From an uncultured archaeon (GTDB lineage Archaea > Asgardarchaeota > Jordiarchaeia > Jordiarchaeales > Jordiarchaeaceae), in NCBI GenBank assembly GCA_964510585.1, contig CAZECW010000204.1, positions 1 through 12,052 on the forward strand: a stretch of DNA of 12,052 nucleotides. Direction: 5' to 3'. Under the pieces are notes generated by a model, which had not been told where the DNA came from, ran no database searches, and worked only from the letters and a program-made list of their open reading frames with translations. The position numbers and the translations under genes are program-made. Positions 921 through 11,556 of the stretch are shown in pieces; the first letter of the stretch is position 1, and every line of letters begins with the position of its first letter.

Positions 921-1067
921 AAATGTGCGAAAAATGGGTTTAAAAGGTATGTTGAATGGTGAAATATTTCTTTTTTTAGCATGGTGTGTCCCATTTCTTA
1001 TGCGATTAACTTATATTCTTAATTCAACATTGGATTTCGGAGACCGGTTTTCACTATGGTGATGTGT

Positions 1068-1706
1068 ATGTCTGAACAGTTGGAGAGAATTGAGCAGTCA
1101 TCTGTGGGTGACGAAGTTATCCAGAGCTTTATTGATGATCACCTTGAACAGTTGAACAGTCCACTAAGGCTGGTTTCGGGGAGGAGATTTGAAGCTGGGC
1201 CCAACGATCCTCCTGCATTCTCGAGGGGCATATATATTTGCAATGTGCCTATAGGCGCCATATATGTTTCCAACCAGTTGTATAATGTTTTGGATAGGGA
1301 TGAGCTTAGGTACATTGTCCTCCATGAGATGTGCCACATTCTCCACAATAATTCTGCGGCTAATGTTCTGCTGGAGTTAAGCAAAACGGGATTTAATCTC
1401 CTACTATCCAAATGGGCCAACATACCCCTACATGAGGTGGAAGACATAGTGGGGGGAGTGAAGGCTATAATAAAAGAGTTCGGACATCCCGGAGTGGAAG
1501 AACAAGTCAAAAAAAATCAGGAACTCAACGCCGACAAGTATGCAGTCATCTGGATGGGAAAAAGAGAACCCGCAATCAGCGCACTAACAAAATTAGCTCA
1601 GGGAAACATTGAAAAACTGTCCCATGTAACCCGCTATGGAAGCTTCGAATTTCCAGTAATCACCATCAAAGAAAGAATAGAAGCCATAAAAAGACTCTCA
1701 CCATAA
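1068..1706 (+). CDS. M48 (HtpX/Ste24-like) zinc metallopeptidase domain protein
   Basis: HExxH motif (IVLHEMCH), the preceding 'LDRDELRYIVLHE' context and a downstream ELNADKYA third-ligand motif are typical of M48. GGTGA SD at 1058-1062 favours ATG 1068 (ORF track starts at 1056). Confidence 0.85.
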   Translation: MSEQLERIEQSSVGDEVIQSFIDDHLEQLNSPLRLVSGRRFEAGPNDPPAFSRGIYICNVPIGAIYVSNQLYNVLDRDELRYIVLHEMCHILHNNSAANVLLELSKTGFNLLLSKWANIPLHEVEDIVGGVKAIIKEFGHPGVEEQVKKNQELNADKYAVIWMGKREPAISALTKLAQGNIEKLSHVTRYGSFEFPVITIKERIEAIKRLSP

Positions 1707-1782: not shown

Positions 1783-1810
1783 TTCTATTCAAAATAGTAT
1801 TTCACTTCAC

Positions 1811-3017
1811 AGATTCCTCCGCAGGAAGCCCCTATTTATAGGTGGGAGGAATGCGGGAACATTTAAGTATTGAGAAAAACCCTCAACTATACTGTGAAGC
1901 AGACTATTATGGTTAAGCTCCTGCCGACACCAGAGCAAGCTGAAGCTCTCCTTGAAACGATGGAGGCTTTCAACAGGGCCTGCAACGAGATAGCTGAAGC
2001 CGCATTTAAACATAGAACAGCCAACAAGGCAAGTCTTCAGAAACTCGCCTACTACAATATTAGACGCAAACATGGTCTTTCAGCCCAGTTGACCATACGC
2101 GCAATCAGCAAGGTGGCTGAAGCCTACAAACGAGACAAGAAAACAAAGCCCACCTTCAGAAGCAAAGGAGCCATAGTCTACGACCAGCGAATCCTCTCCT
2201 GGAAAGGAGTGGAAAGAGTCTCCATACTGACGCTTAGGGGGAGAGAGACCATCCCCGTGAAGTATGGAGCCTACCAGGCTGAAAGGCTCAAAAGAATCAG
2301 GGGGCAAGCCGACCTCATCCACAGAAACGGAGTCTTCCTCCTCGCCGTAGTTGTGGAAACCCCAGAACCACCAACGTACAAAGCTAAGGACTGGCTCGGA
2401 GTCGACCTCGGCATAAAAAACATAGCAACAGACTCCGACGGACAAACATGGAGCGGAAAACAGGTCAACGGACCAAGAAAAAGATACGCAAAGCTCAGAG
2501 CCAAACTCCAAAGCAAGGGAACAAAGTCTGCTAAACGCCTTCTCAAGAAGCGCAGCGGAAAAGAGTCACGCTTCGCCAGAGACATGAACCACCGAATCAG
2601 CAAGTTGCTGGTTGCGAAGGCTAAAGGCACCGGGAGAGGCTTAGCCCTAGAAGATTTGAAGGGCATCCGCTCCCGGATAACGGTTAGAAAGCCCCAACGT
2701 CGCACCCAGCACTCCTGGAGCTTCCGCCAACTCAGACAGTTCATCGAATACAAGGCTAAACTCGCCGGCGTCCCCATCAGACTCGTGGATCCAAGAAACA
2801 CGAGCAGAACGTGTCCAAAATGTGGGTTTACCTCCAAACTGAACAGAAGGGGGGAGCGTTTCCAGTGTGGCAACTGCGGATTCGTTGGGTTCGCAGACCA
2901 CATCGCTGCCCTGAACATTCGGGGCAGGGCTGCAGTCAGCCAGCCATACGTCTCGGGATTTGAACATTTTGTTCAATCTCAGGGACAAGCCCATGAATTT
3001 ATTCATGGGTAGCTGAC
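1811..3017 (+). mobile_element. IS200/IS605-family, tnpB-only (IS1341-like) insertion sequence; target tetranucleotide TCAC
   Basis: TCAC at 1807-1810 precedes the left end, which has the guide GAAG (1825-1828) and a hairpin (TTCCTCC/GGAGGAA, CCTAT/ATAGG). The right end has CAAG (2986-2989), a perfect hairpin CCCATGAAT-TT-ATTCATGGG (2990-3009) and terminal TGAC (3014-3017). GAAG->TCAC and CAAG->TGAC follow the IS608/ISDra2 guide-to-cleavage-site pairing pattern. Boundaries are independently confirmed by restoration of the host ORF. No tnpA, no target duplication. Confidence 0.92.
1894..3012 (+). CDS. tnpB: RNA-guided endonuclease TnpB (IS200/IS605 family), catalytic triad intact
   Basis: RuvC-I GVDLGIKN, RuvC-II LALEDL, Zn finger CPKCG...CGNCG, RuvC-III ADHIAALNI. 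TATA-like TTTAAGTA at 1862-1869 suggests a leaderless GTG start at 1894 (ORF track: TTG 1870). Confidence 0.95.
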   Translation: MKQTIMVKLLPTPEQAEALLETMEAFNRACNEIAEAAFKHRTANKASLQKLAYYNIRRKHGLSAQLTIRAISKVAEAYKRDKKTKPTFRSKGAIVYDQRILSWKGVERVSILTLRGRETIPVKYGAYQAERLKRIRGQADLIHRNGVFLLAVVVETPEPPTYKAKDWLGVDLGIKNIATDSDGQTWSGKQVNGPRKRYAKLRAKLQSKGTKSAKRLLKKRSGKESRFARDMNHRISKLLVAKAKGTGRGLALEDLKGIRSRITVRKPQRRTQHSWSFRQLRQFIEYKAKLAGVPIRLVDPRNTSRTCPKCGFTSKLNRRGERFQCGNCGFVGFADHIAALNIRGRAAVSQPYVSGFEHFVQSQGQAHEFIHG

Positions 3018-3033
3018 CCAACATATATGCAAC
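2850..3033 (+). ncRNA. Predicted omegaRNA/reRNA of the IS605-type TnpB (scaffold to 3017, guide from flank CCAACATATATGCAAC...)
   Basis: Established for TnpB: the scaffold overlaps the tnpB 3' end and right end, and the guide derives from the 3' flank. The right-end hairpin is seen directly; the 5' boundary is a guess. Confidence 0.55.
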
Positions 3034-3737
3034 CAATAATGCACCCATCACCGAAAATGTTAAACTAACCATAATTGTAAGCAGAGGTATTTTCCCAAAC
3101 AGAGACATTGACACGAGCACTAAGCCGAAGACAACTAGTATGGTTCCCAGCATCAAAGTAAGATACCTTCCCCACCTTTTGGCCATAAATAAACCCACAC
3201 CACTTAGGACACCAACCAGTCCCAAGAGAAGGCCACCCCAAGCCAAGATTCTCTGAAAGAGGGCGTAACCTAAACGCTCAGTATAACTGATACCTATACC
3301 TGCTAGGGAAAATAGGTCGATAGGATAATATCCTGTTCTAAAATAGTAGGAGTAAACCCAAGCGTAAAGCCAGCTTCTCTCTAAGTATATTGAAACATCG
3401 GGTGGAATGGGTTGACTGAAAAAGAATATCCCGCAGAAAATTCCGAGAGTGCCTATAACAGCCAGAAACAAGCTTAACACAACAGTTTCCCCAGGGATAT
3501 AACTATCCAATTTATTATCCCCCTACAGTTTTACTTAACAAAATGTTGGCAATCCATATAAGCATACCCGAAGCGGCAAGAAAGTTATGAGTTAACATTT
3601 CCCATTTCCCGACTCTCTAATTCAACCCTTGCCTTTGAGTTTCGCATCTTTGGTAAATTAAAAATTTGAGAGAAAATTTTACCTCATTACCGCTCATTTA
3701 ACCTATTTTGGAGAAAAAAGGGAATTTCAAGGTTGCT

Positions 3738-4286
3738 CTATCCAAACTCGTATTTTACGTCTCCCAAAAGATAAACAAACACCATTATTCCAAATATCAG
3801 AGGAATCACGCCGAAAATCAAGCCCAAACCTCCAAAGGGTGAGGCGAGTCCCCCAAAGAGAAACCCAGACAGGCTGAAAAGATAGGTTGAGGTGGGTCCC
3901 CCAAAGAGAAACGCAAATATGCTGAAAATAATGTTCATCATTGCCATTATCAGGGCCATATAATAGCCCCAATACTTCATTTGGAGCAGCCCAACGCCCG
4001 CAAAGAGATAACATATCGAGAAAATGAAAATAATTGTAGCCACCATGTGATAAATATTTATTATAGACAGATAATCGAAAACAGAAATCAACGGTCCAAT
4101 CCAAAGACCCGGCGGTGAAGGAGAGACTTGGAAAAATGCGAAGCTAACAAACAGGCTCAAGTAGGCTAATCGGTATTCTCCAGCAACAGTTACAGTCTCG
4201 AAAAATACCACTCCGATAAGACATAACACAGAAAAAATAATGAACATAACAGCAATAGCCACAACCCCACTCGGTCTATACGCCAC
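3738..4286 (-). CDS. Membrane-protein array paralog D (~4 TM, 182 aa)
   Basis: GGGAGGG SD then GTG (4286) or ATG (4292): MAYRPSGVVAIA...YLFAGVGLLQMKYWG...VYLLGDVKYEFG*. The ORF track start at 4376 is likely over-extended. Confidence 0.9.
   Translation of the reverse strand: MAYRPSGVVAIAVMFIIFSVLCLIGVVFFETVTVAGEYRLAYLSLFVSFAFFQVSPSPPGLWIGPLISVFDYLSIINIYHMVATIIFIFSICYLFAGVGLLQMKYWGYYMALIMAMMNIIFSIFAFLFGGPTSTYLFSLSGFLFGGLASPFGGLGLIFGVIPLIFGIMVFVYLLGDVKYEFG
3848..3912. repeat. 17-bp exact direct repeat at 48-bp period inside paralog D
   Basis: GTCCCCCAAAGAGAAAC at 3848-3864 and 3896-3912, encoding FLFGG twice; an in-frame 16-codon duplication. Confidence 0.85.
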
Positions 4287-4572
4287 ACACATCCCTCCCA
4301 AACATGTGTTAAATAAGTTACTTTTTACTACTAAAATGTTTTTATTGTGGCAAAACCTTCCATAACTAATCAACAAAGGTTGAGCCTACTTTCAGATATA
4401 AACTGGCCGTTCATGTGCCTTCCAACAGTAGAGATTTATTTGGCTGTCTTAGAAAAAAGGTTCTCAACGTGTAAGCTGGGAAGAGTCGGCTGGGAGGATT
4501 CTACACAGTATAAGAAAAAAATGTTCATTCTGTTCAGAGCAGAAAGGGGTAGGAGGCATAGTTTCCTGTTCC

Positions 4573-5016
4573 CTATTCAAAATCGTATTTTACGTCTCCC
4601 ATTAAATAGATCAGAACTATTATACCAAACACTAGAGGAATTATGCCCACCAACGAAAGCATTGCAAATATACCGCCGACTATGTTGAGTATTCCCAAAA
4701 ATAAAGCTAGCATGCGTCCCCAGTTCTTCATCATGAACAAGCCGACACCAGCCAAAAAGTACAGAGCCGAAAAGATCACAATGCACACAACATAAAAGTG
4801 GTACATATTAATGTAAGACAGCTGGTTAACCGCATAAAAAAGTGTAAAAAAGTTGACTCTCCTAAGTATTACGTCAAAAAGTATCATAGTGTTTAATGAA
4901 GTATAAGATTGGGCAATAACTGTTAATTCAATAGCTATTCCTCCAATGATTCCCAGAGCACCGAAAACGAAAAACAATATAGCCAATGCAATCACTCCAA
5001 CCGGTCTATAACTCAT
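4573..5016 (-). CDS. Membrane-protein array paralog C (~4 TM, 147 aa)
   Basis: GGAGGGAG SD then ATG 5016: MSYRPVGVIALA...LYFLAGVGLFMMKNWGR...IYLMGDVKYDFE*. Confidence 0.9.
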   Translation of the reverse strand: MSYRPVGVIALAILFFVFGALGIIGGIAIELTVIAQSYTSLNTMILFDVILRRVNFFTLFYAVNQLSYINMYHFYVVCIVIFSALYFLAGVGLFMMKNWGRMLALFLGILNIVGGIFAMLSLVGIIPLVFGIIVLIYLMGDVKYDFE

Positions 5017-5077
5017 TCCAACTCCCTCCAACATTACTCATGATTATGGATACTGTGATGTTTTTCTATAAAAGTTT

Positions 5078-5336
5078 TTAGATAAAACTTTCTTCTGAGA
5101 CGCAACCAGTTTTTCCTCCCCTACCTAATTGGTAGCTTTTAAACGTTTCTCCACACTTACCGCACTTCTTTTTGGCTCAGAGGGACTAGCGTCTTCACCC
5201 CAAACAAAAAGCTTCCAATACCCGTTTGCCAATTGAAACCAACCAATTCGAAATATGAAGCAAGTTTAGAAAAATGAACTTCAACACCTTTTCCTCCACA
5301 TTAATTGGTGCAAATAACCTTCCTAGCTTTAAACAC
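5078..5336 (-). pseudogene. Possible relic of a small zinc-ribbon protein (CxxC - Gly/hydrophobic segment - CxxC)
   Basis: AAGGA then GTG: (M)FKARKVICTN*CGGKGVEVHFSKLASYFELVGFNWQTGIGSFLFGVKTLVPLS, then a shift at an A5 run to KKKCGKCGETFKSYQLG...FI*. Requires one in-frame stop and one frameshift. Confidence 0.35.
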
Positions 5337-5364
5337 TATATTCCTTATTCCTGGTCCCAAAAAC

Positions 5365-6633
5365 CTAACATATCTTCACACGGAGACATGGTAGGTTGGT
5401 TTTCATGCTCTCCAGGAAGGGGAGCCCCCGAATACCAGGGATCTTCGAGTAGCCTCCGTCCGTGAGGACTTCATTGCGCACCAGATCTCCGACCTGATGC
5501 GGGGCAGTAGGCCCGCTTCCCGCGCTTAGCCGGCACCTCGGACTTCCACCGTCCTCATTCGGCGCGACACCACGCGGGATCTCATCCGGAGATGAGCGTA
5601 GGGATTTGAACGTTTCGTAGTCAAGAACCTTGAGCGCAAAAGCGGCTGCGGAGCATTTATGTACATCCAAACCAGCGAGCGGAGAGATTTTTTCTCCGAC
5701 TTTTGTGGTGTAGGCCTCACTTCGCCTTTTGGCTCTGCACTTGTGCTCTAAGGTTTGGCCTAACTTGTGGTGGGGGATCCGCTTTACTTTCCTGTTCGCC
5801 CCATGGTTTCCTTTGAACTTCGCCGTGTTGAGCCTTCCGTAAATAACCTCAGCGTTGTAATGCCTGGCGATTTTTTCGATTTTGTTCACCGCCGCGTGTA
5901 GCATGTTGTTTGTTTTGTTTGTCGAGGAGTGCTGGATCTCATGACAGTTGATCTTCCCAACCGCTAGTACTCGTTTCTTCTCTGCAACGGCAAAGTCTAT
6001 ATGTCCAGCGTTAATATCGAGAGCCATCACTCGCTTCGGCTCTGGTTTTGGTTCATCAGTCGCTTCAACGATTATCCGCACATCTTGGCCTTGACCATCA
6101 TCTCTCCGTTTGAGCACGATCGTGTAGGGATGTTTACCGTCAAGCAGGTGCTCGTAGCGCTTCAAAAACTTTTCAGGGATGAATATCTCGGGGTAGATCC
6201 ATCGCTCGCTGAACCCATCTTTAGGTGGTACGTTGATACGGAGCATGATTTTGCCGTCTTGCTGTACGATCCGTGCGTTCAGATTTCCATTTTTCGTCCT
6301 ATCCCCGCGAGAGATTATCAGCGAGTTCCTCCGTTTGGTGTACTCTTCCTTTGATATTTTTCCTTCCATGCGTAGCTTTTGGTTGCGCTTTCCCCCGAAT
6401 GTCACGTGTGGAGGCAGTCCCTCGATCGATTTGTATGCGTCCTTGATGTAGCGTGAATTAAGTCCTGTTTCCTTCTGAAGGATCCGCTCGATTTCGGATT
6501 TCATGATTCCATCCTGCTTCATCGAGTACGCCCTCCGTCTGGCGTTTCCAAAGCGGCGGTAAAGATCCTCAAGCCTCACTGTATCGTGGGGATCTATGTG
6601 TGCGATGACGGCCGGAATGGCTATTTTAGACAT
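5365..6633 (-). CDS. tnpB: IS607-associated TnpB/Cas12f-like protein (Zn-finger-less clade); RuvC-II Glu replaced by Gly
   Basis: VTFGG and SRGDRTKNGNLNARI motifs, RuvC-I MALDINAGHIDFAV, RuvC-II region EVIYGRL (ATT TAC GGA AGG CTC), AYTTKVG...GLDVHKCSAAAFA C-terminal block. AAGGAGGAG SD; 422-aa uninterrupted ORF; the C-terminal ~80 aa overlap the expected omegaRNA region. Confidence 0.85.
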   Translation of the reverse strand: MSKIAIPAVIAHIDPHDTVRLEDLYRRFGNARRRAYSMKQDGIMKSEIERILQKETGLNSRYIKDAYKSIEGLPPHVTFGGKRNQKLRMEGKISKEEYTKRRNSLIISRGDRTKNGNLNARIVQQDGKIMLRINVPPKDGFSERWIYPEIFIPEKFLKRYEHLLDGKHPYTIVLKRRDDGQGQDVRIIVEATDEPKPEPKRVMALDINAGHIDFAVAEKKRVLAVGKINCHEIQHSSTNKTNNMLHAAVNKIEKIARHYNAEVIYGRLNTAKFKGNHGANRKVKRIPHHKLGQTLEHKCRAKRRSEAYTTKVGEKISPLAGLDVHKCSAAAFALKVLDYETFKSLRSSPDEIPRGVAPNEDGGSPRCRLSAGSGPTAPHQVGDLVRNEVLTDGGYSKIPGIRGLPFLESMKTNLPCLRVKIC

Positions 6634-7230
6634 GGCACTCCTCCTTTATCGCTTTCACGATTTTTTTCACCCCACGCTTCCCGTAGAGCCTCGCCGGAAA
6701 AGATGTTATTGTCGCTATCAGGTCTTTGACGAGTTCCTCGTTCGGGCTTTTCGTTTCGTCTTCCTCCACAACGATAACTTCACAGGAAGCGGGGGCTTCC
6801 TTTCAGATACTCGAACCCAAACCTCGCCAGTCGATCCTTGTATTCCACTACTACCGTGTCTATTTCGCCCCTTCGGAAGCCCAGACAGTTTTTTAGCCCC
6901 CTGCGGTTCTCGTTTAACCCAGAAGCGATGTCTTCGAACGTACCAACTACTTTCAATTTTTTCGCTGCGCAGTAGGTTAACAACCTCTCTTTCTGTCTGT
7001 CCAAGTTTCCTGCATCCCGCTGTTTCTTTGTCGAAACTCTCGTATAGATAGCCGTCCCCTTGGCTTCTCTCGCGATAACACCCATTATCCTGTCTAGCTC
7101 CGCCTTCTCCGCGTATCGGTGCTTCCCGAGTCTCACACCTCTTATCACGCCTTGGTCGACGTACTTCCTCAAGCGTGTTTGGATGCAGCCCCGTATACTC
7201 CGAGGCCTCTTTCATTCTTAATAATGGCAT
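6626..7230 (-). pseudogene. tnpA: IS607 TnpA (MerR-like HTH + serine recombinase), frameshifted
   Basis: MPLLRMKEASEYTGLHPNT (+1 base at ~7173) LRKYVDQG...AIYTRVSTKKQ...GNLDRQKERL...EDIASGLNENRRGL...VVVEYKDRLARFGFEYL (shift at ~6781-6800) EVIVVEEDETKSPNEELVKDLIATITSFPARLYGKRG...KEECHV*. The YxRVS catalytic serine and the EELVxDL..I.SF..RLYG motifs are diagnostic. Confidence 0.92.
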
Positions 7231-7346
7231 CAAATATGTTAATGTGTGTTAAATTATAAGGTTACCTGCAACTGTTACGCTCCTCCCATCTCAATCCTGG
7301 TCGGAGACATGTTTTTGGAAAGGTACTTGTTTTCGAATCAGTTTTC

Positions 7347-7841
7347 CTAGGTAAAATCATATTTTGCGTCACCTGTAAGGTATACGATTGTCCCTATTCC
7401 AAACAGTAGGGGAATTAGACCAAATATGAACGTGAATGATTCCCAAAAAATTCCATGCATCACTAGTGGTAATGCTATTACTAATAGGAGTATTCCAATT
7501 ACCAAAGAGAGGTAACGTCCCCACTTCTTCATAGAGAGCAAGCAAATGCTAGCCGGAAGACTTACCACCGAAAAAAGGAGGACACCCCAAGCCGAAAAGT
7601 TAAAACTTTCGATAAGGGACAATATATCAAATAGTTGCATAGTAGATGACGCGCCAATAATGTTCCCATAGTTTGAAAAAATTAGTCTCATTACATACTC
7701 GTTCCCAAACAGGAAAGACACCAAGAAATATTGAGGTGGAAGCACCACTCTCATAATAAGTAATGCTATCATGATTCCCAGAACTTGCATAACTATGTAG
7801 GCTATAGCCAATGAGACGACCCCTTCCGGTCTATAAGCCAT
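7347..7841 (-). CDS. Membrane-protein array paralog B (~4 TM, 164 aa)
   Basis: MAYRPEGVVSLA...CLLSMKKWGR...VYLTGDAKYDFT*; GGGGGAG SD upstream. Confidence 0.9.
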   Translation of the reverse strand: MAYRPEGVVSLAIAYIVMQVLGIMIALLIMRVVLPPQYFLVSFLFGNEYVMRLIFSNYGNIIGASSTMQLFDILSLIESFNFSAWGVLLFSVVSLPASICLLSMKKWGRYLSLVIGILLLVIALPLVMHGIFWESFTFIFGLIPLLFGIGTIVYLTGDAKYDFT

Positions 7842-7950
7842 TATTCCATCATCTCCCCCAAATATCTCTTAGTAAGACTAGTACTCTTAATATTTAAACA
7901 TTCTTAAAAGGGCAAAATAAAGTTCGGAGAACAGATAGAAAGATCATGGA

Positions 7951-7968
7951 TTTAAAAAGCTTTTTAAA
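7951..7968. promoter_or_regulatory. Perfect 18-bp palindrome forming BRE/TATA-like elements on both strands
   Basis: TTTAAAAAGCTTTTTAAA is its own reverse complement; each strand reads AAAAAGCTTTTTAAA, resembling archaeal BRE-TATA. Confidence 0.5.
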
Positions 7969-8054
7969 AAGTAATAAAAAGTAAAAGCACTAGCTCCATT
8001 CGGATACCAACTGCTCTGTAAAAATATAAAAATGGGAAGTGAACGAAGATTGCT

Positions 8055-8552
8055 TCATTGAAATTCATACTTCACGTCACCCGCCAGATAGGCAACCGTG
8101 ACTATTCCAAAAACAAGAAAAATTGTACCGAACAAGAGAGCATAAAGGAATAGGAATAGGGATAGGAATAGAAACAGGAATATGCCTACGATTATCGATA
8201 CTATTCCGAGAATTAATCCCAAAACCCTTGCCCAGTTCCGCATACTGACCAAGCCGACGCCCGCAATTAGATACAATGCTGAAAAAATCGCAAGAACTCC
8301 ACCAAAAATGTATGCGAAGCTAATATCTCGCGGTATAGTGAAAAGTGGATAAGAAATACCACCTAAAGCCCCTATGGGGTTAATGCCCACCTCCAAAAGG
8401 TAGAGACTTGCAAGAATATACCAATTTAAACTCTGATAAGAATTAGGAAGAACCATAGCCAAAATAGTTATTACTCCGGCGATTCCCAGCCCCGCAATAA
8501 TCATGAAGATAACTGAAAGAGCAATCACACCACCAGGTCTGTGAACACTCAT
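8055..8552 (-). CDS. Membrane-protein array paralog A (~4 TM, 165 aa)
   Basis: MSVHRPGGVIALS...LYLIAGVGLVSMRNWAR...AYLAGDVKYEFQ*; GGAGGAG upstream; TATA-like GAAAGGTTTTTATG upstream on the minus strand. Confidence 0.9.
   Translation of the reverse strand: MSVHRPGGVIALSVIFMIIAGLGIAGVITILAMVLPNSYQSLNWYILASLYLLEVGINPIGALGGISYPLFTIPRDISFAYIFGGVLAIFSALYLIAGVGLVSMRNWARVLGLILGIVSIIVGIFLFLFLSLFLFLYALLFGTIFLVFGIVTVAYLAGDVKYEFQ
8147..8182. repeat. Hexanucleotide tandem repeat (GGAATA)x6, imperfect, inside paralog A
   Basis: GGAATA GGAATA GGGATA GGAATA GAAACA GGAATA, encoding the Phe-Leu run IFLFLFLSLFLFL. Confidence 0.85.
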
Positions 8553-8681: not shown

Positions 8682-9971
8682 TTATGTTTTCATAGACATA
8701 TTGACAAGTTCCATCAAGTCCACAACGTGTATACTCATTTTGTTTTCTTCCTTGGCATCGCTGAGATTTCTGTAGCAGAAGGGACAAGCCGACGACAGTA
8801 TCTGGGCTCCTGTTTCCAAGGCTTCCTTCAATCTCTCGGTGGCTGCGAATGATGCCAGCTCCTTGAAAGAGGATTTAACTCCTCCGCCTGCCCCGCAGCA
8901 CCAAGCGTTGTGCCTGTTTCGAGGCATTTCCACCAATTCGATGCCCGGTATACTTTTGAGAAGCTCTCGGGGCGGCTCATATATTCCCATGTGTCTACCG
9001 ATGTGGCAGGGGTCATGGTATGTGACTTTTTTGTTTATTGGCTTTTCCAGTTTTAACTCCCCCTTCCTAATCAGGTCTAAAACGTAGACTGGTGAGTGCA
9101 CTGCTTCGAATCCGTAGTCCAGTTTGAACTTGTCCTTGTAGACTTCCTTAAGCATTCTGTAACAGCCCGAGCAGGAAGTTAAAACTAGTTCGGCGCCCGT
9201 TTTCTCAATTTCTTTAATGTTGTGCTCTGCACACTTCCTTGCCACTTCTACCTGACCAGTCCACACTAGGGGGGAGCCGCAGCACCACTCATCCTGCATA
9301 ACGGTGAAATCTTTCCCAGACTTGGACAAAATATTAAATGTGGAGTTGGCAATTTCCTTTTGTCTGTAGGCGGATGTGCAACCCACAAAATAAACAATGT
9401 TTGCCTTTCCGGGTAGCTTAGCCTTCTTGTCTCCAAGCCAGTTCAACCTGTCCCTATGCTTCTCGATATAGGGGTTGTGCTCCTCCAACACTGATTGTCC
9501 ATAGCGTTTCTGCTCCGGCATCGGTCCGAAGCCTTCCTCCACGGCTTTCTCCCGGGCGGCGGCGAGCCACTCCAAGGCATATGTGTGAATTCCCTCCAGC
9601 TGGCACTGCTGGGTACAGTTTCCACATAGTGTGCAGTGGTAAAGTATTTCCGCCAGTGCTGGGCTCCAATTAATCTTGCCCGTGTTTAATCCCCACAATA
9701 GTAGGTTTTTTCCTCCCAGGTAGTAGGACTCAAATTTTCTCAGCTCTCCGCTGGGGCAGGAGCGTGCCAGATATGCGTTCTGGTAGATGTATCGGCACTG
9801 TCCACATTTTCCGCAGCGATAAACCTGGTCCTTGTAGTATTCTAGTTCTTTGTACCTCTCAAGTGACACTCTGTCGGGAATTGTGACTTTCTCAGTTATC
9901 CCCCTTCCTGGAAGATACTTTTTCATCACTCTTTCAAATAGTTCCCTTTCTTTAGGCTTAACTGCTTCCAT
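8682..9971 (-). CDS. (Fe-S)-binding oxidoreductase subunit, GlcF/HdrD-like (2x[4Fe-4S] + two CCG domains)
   Basis: CGKCGQC...SCP and CTLCGNCTQQC ferredoxin motifs; YFVGC...WCCG...TSCSGC and YHDPCH...WCCGAGGG...SACPFC CCG-domain motifs; GAAGGAG SD, 16 bp after the upstream gene. Confidence 0.92.
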   Translation of the reverse strand: MEAVKPKERELFERVMKKYLPGRGITEKVTIPDRVSLERYKELEYYKDQVYRCGKCGQCRYIYQNAYLARSCPSGELRKFESYYLGGKNLLLWGLNTGKINWSPALAEILYHCTLCGNCTQQCQLEGIHTYALEWLAAAREKAVEEGFGPMPEQKRYGQSVLEEHNPYIEKHRDRLNWLGDKKAKLPGKANIVYFVGCTSAYRQKEIANSTFNILSKSGKDFTVMQDEWCCGSPLVWTGQVEVARKCAEHNIKEIEKTGAELVLTSCSGCYRMLKEVYKDKFKLDYGFEAVHSPVYVLDLIRKGELKLEKPINKKVTYHDPCHIGRHMGIYEPPRELLKSIPGIELVEMPRNRHNAWCCGAGGGVKSSFKELASFAATERLKEALETGAQILSSACPFCYRNLSDAKEENKMSIHVVDLMELVNMSMKT

Positions 9972-9987
9972 ACCCGTCTCTCCTTCT

Positions 9988-11451
9988 TTATAGTCCTTGT
10001 CCAGGGTTCATTATTCCGTTGGGGTCTATGAGTTTCTTTATTTTTTGCATGAGTTCTAGGGTGTTGGGGTCTGCCTTTTCAAAGTTGCGAGCCTTAGCCC
10101 AGGGTGGAGGCTTGTATCTTATGAAGCTTCCCACTTTTCTTGCTTCCTCATCCATATCCATAAGGCACTTTCTCACTTTTTGGATTTCTTGAGGGTCATT
10201 TTTGCTGAAGGAGATGTTCATTCTTCCAATCCAGTAGTGTCCACCAAACATTGCTCTGCCATAAAACTGGGGTCGCCTACCATGTCTTTTTGCAGCCTCC
10301 CTCATCCTGTAGTACACTTCAACCAAGTGTTTTGAGGAAACATATCCACCAGTCCATTCTCCGCCACCGCCCCTTGCGAAGTCCCAAACTGTGTAGAGCT
10401 GAATAGGTGTACTGGTATAAGTTAGGAATTCTCCAATCTGGTTTTCAGCGAAAAGTCCAATGGCGTCACCGAAACGTGTAGCCATTTCACCCTCTTCAGA
10501 GCATATTTTCATTAGAGTTTCCTCCTTAGCGTCAAGCTCCTTCTCTGTGACACCAGTAACGGTTACCAAGCCATAGAAATCTGGGAGACCAGCCTTTTCG
10601 GGCTCAAAGGGAATATTTTCACTGTCACGCACTCCCTGAGTGGCGGTAAGCCAAACAAAGTTTAGAAAACACATATCCACAATTCCCAAACCAGCCTTAG
10701 CAAGCCTCTTAAAAATACGCACTCCGGAATCCACAGTTTTCCCTAAAACAATGTAGTCTCTTCGAGGCAAATTGGGCCAAAGCTTAATTCCTGCCTTAGT
10801 AATTATTCCCGTCGTTCCCTCCCAACCAATAAATAAGCCCGCCAGATCCGGGTAAGGTTGCCGCCCATACCAGTAATCAGTAGACATACAGGACCCAACC
10901 CGCACCACCTTACCAGTGGGAAGAACCACCTCTAAACCGTTAATGAATTCTGCTCCCGTTCCGCCAACCATTCCCAAGTCCAGCATACCGTAACAAATGT
11001 ACGCCGATATCACCCCAGTTCCCGGAGGAGACCAAGTGATTCCCGCTCTGAGATCAGGGTGGTTCTTTAAAAGGTAGCCCTTTAAATCTCCCCAAGTGAT
11101 TCCACCCTCAACCACCGCATACATATCATCCTCATTAACCTCAAGAACTCTGTTCATTCTTCTCAAGTCTACAACTATTCCTCCCTCTCTGGGAATGCAA
11201 ACCCCGCCAATATTGATTCCAGAGACCCAGGGCACAACTGGAATTTTCTCCCGGTTAGCAAGCTCAACAATCTGCCTAACTTCCTCCGTAGTTTCCGGCA
11301 TAGCCACAAAATCGCATTTTCCAGGCTCCTCAGCAGTCACAAAGTCCCAGTGATAGAGAAAAAGTTCTTCCGGTCTGTTGGAAACAAATTTTTCGCCCAC
11401 GATTCCAGCCAATTCCTCGTAGAGCTTATCTACCGCAACCAATTTGGTCAT
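9988..11451 (-). CDS. FAD-binding oxidoreductase (FAD_binding_4/PCMH-type; GlcD/D-lactate dehydrogenase/VAO superfamily)
   Basis: P..TEEV..IV..AN....PVVP; VDLRRMNRVLEV...YAVVEGG; GLEVVLPTGKVVRVG; DLAGLFIGWEGTTGIITKA; KIKKLIDPNGIMNPG C-terminus. GAGGAGG SD favours ATG 11451 (track: 11469). Confidence 0.92.
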   Translation of the reverse strand: MTKLVAVDKLYEELAGIVGEKFVSNRPEELFLYHWDFVTAEEPGKCDFVAMPETTEEVRQIVELANREKIPVVPWVSGINIGGVCIPREGGIVVDLRRMNRVLEVNEDDMYAVVEGGITWGDLKGYLLKNHPDLRAGITWSPPGTGVISAYICYGMLDLGMVGGTGAEFINGLEVVLPTGKVVRVGSCMSTDYWYGRQPYPDLAGLFIGWEGTTGIITKAGIKLWPNLPRRDYIVLGKTVDSGVRIFKRLAKAGLGIVDMCFLNFVWLTATQGVRDSENIPFEPEKAGLPDFYGLVTVTGVTEKELDAKEETLMKICSEEGEMATRFGDAIGLFAENQIGEFLTYTSTPIQLYTVWDFARGGGGEWTGGYVSSKHLVEVYYRMREAAKRHGRRPQFYGRAMFGGHYWIGRMNISFSKNDPQEIQKVRKCLMDMDEEARKVGSFIRYKPPPWAKARNFEKADPNTLELMQKIKKLIDPNGIMNPGQGL

Positions 11452-11556
11452 TATTTTTTTCCTCCTCATACTTCCTAATTGGTTAAATACGCATTTTTTT
11501 AGTTACTTTGTTATCTTTTTTCCTTGCTTTCTCTTTTATTAAGGTATTGGTGAATA

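Follow-up and report, generated by a model that had tools for sequence, protein, structure and literature searches.

Within a 12,052-nucleotide stretch of DNA from a hot-spring Asgard archaeon of the Jordarchaeia/Freyarchaeia lineage (contig CAZECW010000204.1; the whole stretch is termed here the window), five minus-strand genes, c1 to c5, encode small hydrophobic proteins. They belong to a family that as yet has no name, that bears a tail motif of its own and is expanded in tandem, and whose fold is an uncharacterized one. The explanation favored for this family, which is given about an even chance of being correct, is that its members are membrane adaptors combining a conserved cytoplasmic face with a paralog-specific outer hairpin. 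In principle, a small protein of four transmembrane (TM) helices, with both termini inside the cell, would engage a common cytoplasmic partner through the shared face, and the outer hairpin would provide each copy with a different external or oligomer contact. Natural relatives carry HEAT-repeat domains right after the conserved tail motif.

The array comprises c1 (8055-8552; 165 residues, with an HRPGGV head and a GDVKYEFQ tail), c2 (7347-7841; 164 residues, with an AYRPEGV head and a GDAKYDFT tail), c3 (4573-5016; at 147 residues the shortest copy, in which the loop between TM3 and TM4 is nearly absent), c4 (3738-4286; 182 residues, with a long TM3-TM4 loop) and c5, which is split by an insertion. 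The start of c4 is a GTG codon; an alternative ATG at 4292 is spaced too closely to the Shine-Dalgarno (SD)-like motif. The 5' part of c5 (3017-3510) starts with TTG and ends in ...AYMLG, and its 3' end (1785-1808) consists of the final 7 codons and the stop (EVKYYFE*); after removal of the insertion the two parts are in frame. The array proteins share YRPxGV at the head, G(V/I)GLxxMKxWGR at the turn and GDVKYxF at the tail, with small exceptions in c1 (HRPGGV), in c5 (YIPGET) and in c2, ASICLLSMKKWGR (SICLL). The other copies are 29-46% identical to c1, and composition-adjusted BLASTP comparisons yield E = 5e-30 for c1 against c3 and E = 1e-13 for c2 against an intact c5 ortholog; with similarity far beyond chance, c1-c5 are true paralogs.

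The segment following TM1 has a mean column entropy of 3.25 bits in an alignment of 70 family members, versus 1.2-2.3 bits elsewhere, and the length of the TM3-TM4 loop lies between about 3 residues in c3 and about 29 in c4. Two tandem repeats were identified with Tandem Repeats Finder, a 48-bp repeat (1.9 copies; 3836-3928) within the TM3-TM4 loop of c4 and a 6-bp repeat (6.2 copies; 8146-8182), FLFLFLSLFLFL, within c1. The genes are spaced separately, by 213-286 bp, and each is preceded by a GGAGG-like motif 6-12 nucleotides 5' of its start and by an A/T-rich, TATA-like box 50-60 nucleotides upstream. A preliminary description of this DNA had noted five same-strand paralogs with shared motifs, a divergent post-TM1 segment, a TM3-TM4 loop of variable length and internal repeat expansions, all of which are borne out here; it had also given each gene its own SD and TATA-like element, and these are indeed present and are kept at an orthologous locus (L010), as sequence patterns only and with no functional evidence.

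Topology was predicted by applying the positive-inside rule to the 70 members. The mean number of lysine and arginine residues is 1.4 for the N-terminus, 2.3 for the 7-residue turn between TM2 and TM3, and 1.3 for the tail; it is 0.8 for the variable segment between TM1 and TM2 (loop 1; 47 residues) and 0 for the TM3-TM4 loop (loop 3). From this distribution a cytoplasmic location is predicted for the N-terminus, the MKxWGR turn and the tail, and an outer one for loops 1 and 3 (i.e., an N-in/C-in arrangement); the preliminary description had supposed a cytoplasmic tail and an exposed variable loop. The positions conserved across the family (in c3 numbering, P5, G7, G92, L93, M96, W99, Y137, L138, K143 and F146) fall almost entirely at predicted cytoplasmic helix ends, in the MKxWGR turn or in the DVKYxF tail, the column entropy of the tail being 1.31 bits over about 70 divergent members. 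The 70-member alignment contains no near-invariant charged or histidine residue within the membrane.

Some members continue past the tail, either into HEAT repeats or into charged extensions. HEAT_2 or HEAT_PBS repeats directly follow an intact tail motif in P0049, P0050, P0084, P0089 and P0097, with junctions such as ...GEVKYKFEV-HEAT. Hence the tail is not obligatorily terminal: its conservation, as previously claimed, stands, but its strictly terminal position does not. The HEAT fusions fit a cytoplasmic C-terminus and suggest that the conserved face works with protein-interaction scaffolds. One of the fusion proteins, P0050, comes from a Freyarchaeota metagenome-assembled genome (MAG) and has two 4-TM modules.

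Placement of the family relies upon similarities to two domains of uncharacterized function. No copy passed a Pfam gathering threshold, and NCBIfam returned no hit for any copy. DUF2127 (PF09900), with a threshold of 24.3 bits, gave 22.8 bits for c4, the best copy in the window, and was hit at E ≤ 0.01 by 25 of the 70 members (best E = 5.8e-5), individual proteins scoring 16.7-23.7 bits, all under the cut-off. DUF7144 (PF23636), with a threshold of 27 bits, gave 14.7-16.4 bits for the window copies and was hit at E ≤ 0.01 by 8 of the 70. An AlphaFold2 model of c3, built from the 70-sequence alignment, has a predicted local distance difference test (pLDDT) score of 96 and a predicted template-modeling score of 0.85; its helices span residues 6-50, 56-94, 98-118 and 122-139, with a short tail helix at 141-145, and its post-TM1 segment is modeled as a helical hairpin in which TM1 and TM2 each continue outward for about 20 more residues. 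The model shows the four-helix DUF2127 fold. Compared with the ESM-atlas, it matches eight clusters with template-modeling (TM) scores of 0.73-0.83 and root-mean-square deviations of 1.4-2.4 Å; four of these clusters carry DUF2127 or DUF7144 (TM scores 0.76-0.83, deviations 1.4-2.4 Å). The top AFDB cluster hits are likewise named DUF2127, and protein-language-model neighbors agree with a DUF2127/DUF7144 placement. Searches of the PDB found nothing by sequence profile at E ≤ 1 and nothing by Foldseek at E ≤ 0.001, and a wide VIA-align search returned only generic long helical hairpins (Z ≤ 10.4), which is within helical noise. On this evidence the family can be placed, remotely, as a divergent, expanded branch of the DUF2127/DUF7144 four-helix membrane fold. 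The preliminary description had been unable to name a characterized family; the profile and Foldseek searches that it proposed accord with this, yielding sub-threshold DUF2127/DUF7144 matches and no convincing solved structure. Because DUF2127 and DUF7144 are without known function (in those parts of the DUF2127 literature that were available, no paper appears to address it), fold placement provides no mechanism.

Like DUF2127 and DUF7144 proteins, the array proteins are about 130-170 residues long, have four TM helices with a G(I/V)GLxxMxxW(G/A)R turn between TM2 and TM3, and resemble them in predicted structure and among AFDB and language-model neighbors. The family differs from them in that none of its members reaches either gathering score, in having a conserved head (YRPxGV) and tail (DVKYxF) of its own and a TM1-TM2 hairpin that is long and variable, and in a tandem, multi-copy expansion restricted to one Asgard lineage. 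More distant relatives of the type 'RPTxVLVIAI ... GIGLLxMxPWG', retrieved with the profile (whole-library E-values of 1e-5 to 1e-9; some with sub-threshold DUF7144 or YbjO hits), likewise begin TM1 with an N-terminal RP motif and have the turn between TM2 and TM3 in common with the family, but lack the DVKYxF tail, have long charged C-terminal extensions instead and, as far as seen, form no tandem arrays. To DUF308/HdeD-type proteins there is weak profile similarity over TM2-TM3 (E = 9.5e-5 for c1; 3 of 70 members), though the match is below threshold and covers a partial region, and there is no sign of a shared acid-stress context. Eukaryotic tetraspanins (CD53, Tspan15) also have four TM helices, an N-in/C-in arrangement and helices extending beyond the membrane, but this is analogy only: in them it is the TM3-TM4 loop that is large, and it is held by disulfide bonds, the VIA-align score (Z = 9.7 over 124 residues) is within the range of helical noise, and there is neither a sequence signal nor evidence of homology.

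As far as sampled, the family is confined to the Jordarchaeia/Freyarchaeia lineage of Asgard archaea. A word-based search retrieved 17 proteins, all from Candidatus (Ca.) Jordarchaeaceae or Freyarchaeota MAGs; an exhaustive profile search retrieved 210 cluster representatives at E ≤ 1e-3, 75 of them at E ≤ 1e-10, most of which retain both head and tail, and all named members of which are Jordarchaeaceae, Jordarchaeum or Freyarchaeota. Among 201 Asgard genomes (the window genome, 5 others of its genus and 195 from outside the genus), full-length matches occur in all 5 of the other genus genomes, at 8-18 matches each; the remaining 195 contain no full-length match, and 12 of them give weak partial hits over TM2-TM3. 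The genome of the window itself contains four more, dispersed copies, which retain the tail and occur in unrelated contexts with no conserved genomic partner.

The array recurs in close relatives. In four contigs from other NCBI MAGs (L010-L013), c1-c5 are present in the same order, without insertion sequences (ISs), and follow a flavin adenine dinucleotide (FAD) oxidase and a CCG-domain iron-sulfur (Fe-S) protein, with an M48-like peptidase coming next on the opposite strand. The 1:1 orthologs are 74-91% identical at the amino acid level (83% for c1 in L010 and 88-91% for c2 in L010 and L012), and intact c5 orthologs of 172 residues occur in L010 and L011. In a maximum-likelihood tree each window copy groups with its MAG counterparts at 99-100% bootstrap support, the deep branches being unresolved. 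Thus c1-c5 are old paralogs that are stably inherited among close relatives as five 1:1 orthogroups and, given the same five genes in the same order, they do not constitute a set of strain-variable cassettes. Between species, family copies are gained, lost and disrupted. The complete genome of the more distant Ca. Freyarchaeum deiterrae (G038) has its own, species-specific duplicates and a rearranged array of 7 copies on both strands (L023; 3,442,977-3,451,087); c1 of L012 (GCA_018383895) is truncated N-terminally (L012:9354-9689) and its c5 stops early, at ...REVK* (L012:12308-12880); and two copies in another genome (G056:C183) contain in-frame TAA stops. Two other genes interrupt the G038 array, one for a 704-residue subtilase whose C-terminus bears a zinc ribbon and one for the M48-like peptidase; an ArsB/CitMHS transporter and an alpha/beta hydrolase lie at its flanks.

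Selection was estimated pairwise between orthologs by the Nei-Gojobori method, as the ratio of nonsynonymous to synonymous rates (dN/dS, or omega). Array copies evolve several-fold faster than their neighbors: whole-gene omega is 0.21-0.83 for the copies, against values of 0.04-0.09 for the three genes that flank them (FAD oxidase, CCG Fe-S protein and M48 peptidase). Pooled over copies and compared with L010, omega is 0.28 for the N-terminus and TM1, 0.40 for loop 1, 0.29 for TM2-TM3, 0.54 for loop 3, and 0.18 for TM4 and the tail; the pooled loop values range from 0.40 to 0.59 (loop 1) and from 0.48 to 0.87 (loop 3). Relative to the TM segments and termini, the two loops have a raised ratio of nonsynonymous to synonymous changes (N:S; odds 1.8 and 2.5; p = 0.028 and 0.007), which is nevertheless significantly lower than expected under neutrality (p = 0.0008 and 0.049); hence purifying selection is relaxed, and this relaxation is concentrated in the loops. 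The loops are under relaxed but net purifying selection, and positive selection is not demonstrated. The single exception is loop 1 of c3, for which each of the three pairwise comparisons gives an omega of about 2; with 8-13 nonsynonymous versus 1-2 synonymous changes, this is not significant. The dS of c3, at about 0.06, is several-fold below that of the flanking genes (0.35-0.47) in all pairwise comparisons, albeit from small counts, and is also lower than the divergence of adjacent intergenic DNA. A recent sweep is not favored as the cause of this low dS, the intergenic DNA beside c3 being more diverged than the coding sequence.

The preliminary description had proposed instead a surface receptor, immunity or virus-evasion repertoire of 'hypervariable' proteins, whose exposed loop would be under diversifying selection and whose conserved tail would serve for docking. 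This is now considered distinctly unlikely, though not for want of agreement on several points: of the features by which such a repertoire would be recognized, an outward-facing variable region (in silico, by the positive-inside rule on the 70 sequences) and a lineage-specific expansion with turnover of copies were found, the elevated omega peaks in the loops, the excess in loop 1 of c3 recurs in each comparison, and copies are eroded (c1 and c5 in L012, the G056 stops, and the IS in c5 here). The expansion was as that description had predicted, and the comparison of copy number across related genomes that it had asked for confirmed it. However, a dN/dS above 1 in the exposed region and a lack of stable 1:1 orthology were not found. 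The fixed gene order and the syntenic orthologs in four other MAGs contradict 'hypervariable', and the per-region analysis of dN/dS contradicts diversifying selection: the loops are the fastest regions, yet their pooled omega stays below 1. Moreover, the main contig of the probable source run has 1 difference over 5.8 kb of the array (contigs hide rare variants), and a link to viruses or defense was not found. The stevor, rifin and Pfmc-2TM families of Plasmodium, which likewise exist in many copies and have a variable loop set between termini and TM segments that are conserved, vary between strains and switch expression; the array copies, in contrast, are stable 1:1 orthologs with loops under net purifying selection. 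As a set of stable, old paralogs under relaxed purifying selection, the array should therefore be left out of any tally of loci for diversity generation or antigenic variation. Of the outcomes that the preliminary description itself had named as speaking against its proposal, purifying selection across the loop was observed; assignment to a housekeeping family was not, nor was a cytoplasmic loop without expansion.

The strongest competitor, unlikely but to be taken seriously, is that the array encodes small membrane proteins that the cell can do without and that have some generic role in the membrane or under stress, like that proposed for DUF308/HdeD-type proteins; here the loops would be unconstrained, the conserved ends would be determinants of folding, insertion or helix capping, and the tandem copies would be neutral duplicates. 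Weak net purifying selection throughout, the frequent truncation and IS disruption that are tolerated, the occurrence of the head and core motifs, without the tail, in distant bacterial relatives, and the dispersed copies without a conserved partner are all in keeping with this; five distinct paralogs that stay intact, with their own conserved upstream elements, across several genomes, and a tail that has low entropy among divergent members and is retained even where a HEAT domain follows, are not. A further idea, which is very doubtful, is that the M48-like metallopeptidase recognizes the conserved cytoplasmic tail and has the array proteins as its substrates or as its partners in the membrane. 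This peptidase is single-copy in 6 of 6 genus genomes and shares the genus-restricted distribution of the family (the other 195 Asgard genomes gave one weak hit only, E = 8e-6, with the window query); it adjoins a family member in at least 5 of the 6, including inside the G038 array (L023:13074-13721), and is a well-conserved protein with an intact HExxH...E site. But such adjacency could simply reflect synteny inherited by the members of a single genus, the peptidase is not found beside the dispersed family copies, and contact lacks direct support. A complex prediction of the peptidase with c3 scored 0.00, controls not having been run, and counts neither for nor against binding. A role as membrane anchors for the adjacent FAD oxidase and CCG-domain Fe-S oxidoreductase is barely credible: membrane subunits are common among proteins with CCG domains (HdrD/TfrB/GlpC-like), and the pair lies beside the array both here and in L010-L013, but the array genes have separate upstream elements and sizable spacers, the pair does not border the array in Ca. 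Freyarchaeum deiterrae, and dispersed copies lie in unrelated contexts. A cytochrome-type anchor is rejected, the 70-member alignment containing no near-invariant histidine or cysteine as a cofactor ligand, which also counts against an anchor for the oxidoreductase pair.

The membrane-adaptor reading itself has several points against it. The positive-inside rule is the sole basis for the topology; the outer hairpin is confidently modeled for c3 only, a c1 model from a shallow alignment having a pLDDT below 50 there; and the hairpin is rather hydrophobic, and instead of being exposed it might be embedded in the membrane, rest on its surface or form an oligomer interface. Only a minority of members, 5 of about 150 listed representatives, are fused to HEAT repeats, and stand-alone HEAT proteins of the genome, with 22 matches on 12 contigs (the best one at G000:C53:6362-7051), never occur on the contig of a family member, which is uninformative. 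The conserved cytoplasmic residues could serve folding or insertion instead of partner binding, and no characterized homolog supports any function. A bolder version of the membrane-adaptor reading, which is improbable as a whole, is that of a Freyarchaeia/Jordarchaeia-specific birth-and-death family of surface-exposed proteins whose paralog-specific hairpins recognize viruses, partner cells or envelope components and whose cytoplasmic face (RP-G / MKxWGR / DVKYxF) recruits HEAT-repeat scaffolds; if true, it would amount to a prokaryotic, tetraspanin-like membrane organizer in a close relative of eukaryotes. To our knowledge, almost nothing is known of the Asgard archaeal cell surface. More generally, this analysis defines a lineage-restricted, multi-copy membrane family with a confident structural model and a division of conservation between inner and outer sides, and it suggests specific handles for experiment: the HEAT-repeat fusions, the co-inherited peptidase, partners of the tail, topology and expression.

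On either side of the array lie the genes mentioned above. The M48-like zinc metallopeptidase (1056-1706, plus strand) is a soluble protein with an HEMCH...ELNAD motif (Peptidase_M48, E = 3.5e-10) and is convergent with c5. The GlcD-like FAD oxidase and the CCG-domain Fe-S protein (8682-11469, minus strand) are under strong purifying selection, with an omega of about 0.04; the best NCBIfam match of the latter is TfrB (E = 6e-65, below the cut-off).

Two insertions carrying TnpB genes, as previously noted, interrupt the array, one of which splits c5 as judged from IS-free loci. Their limits were set by alignment to such orthologous loci (1809-3016 and 5346-7280) and refined using junction contigs, which skip 1207 nucleotides (1809-3015) and 1932 nucleotides (5349-7280), respectively; both insertions are missing from L010 and L012. 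The first (1809-3016, plus strand) is an IS200/IS605-type element that interrupts the codons for the conserved c5 tail, separating the one for Gly from those for EVKYYFE*; it contains only tnpB (1870-3012; 380 residues; Cas12f1-like_TNB, E = 8.7e-22; OrfB_IS605, E = 1e-10) and no TnpA, and its assignment to IS200/IS605 follows from these domains and from its scarless absence at orthologous sites.

Both insertions are found in three hot-spring sequencing runs from three studies; a fourth run (X4; a 2025 sample) contains a 10.8-kb contig, about 96% identical, without either. In the probable source run, a short contig (depth 15.5; 7 mismatches) joins 1808 to 3016 beside the IS-bearing contig (depth 41.2), from which it follows that an IS-free allele is present; this allele probably belongs to a co-occurring close strain. 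IS-free c5 junction contigs occur in runs X1 and X4, and the tnpB-only element in c5 is naturally polymorphic. At the DNA level no further copy of either IS was found in the window's own assembly, which is fragmented, repeats often being left unassembled.

The second insertion (5349-7280; 1932 nucleotides, no strand assigned, with a junction ambiguous by 4 nucleotides) is IS607-like and lies between c2 and c3. It holds, on the minus strand, an open reading frame (ORF) for a TnpB-like protein (5365-6633; 422 residues), which has no Pfam TnpB match and only a sub-threshold match to TIGR01766 (E = 3e-4), and one for a serine recombinase (6780-7172; 130 residues) with a Resolvase N-terminal domain (E = 2.3e-19); the insertion looks decayed or divergent. 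In IS-free loci a 61-residue ORF is conserved between c2 and c3 (L010:11265-11450; L011:3849-4034), and the IS607-like element sits a few bases upstream of the start of this ORF.

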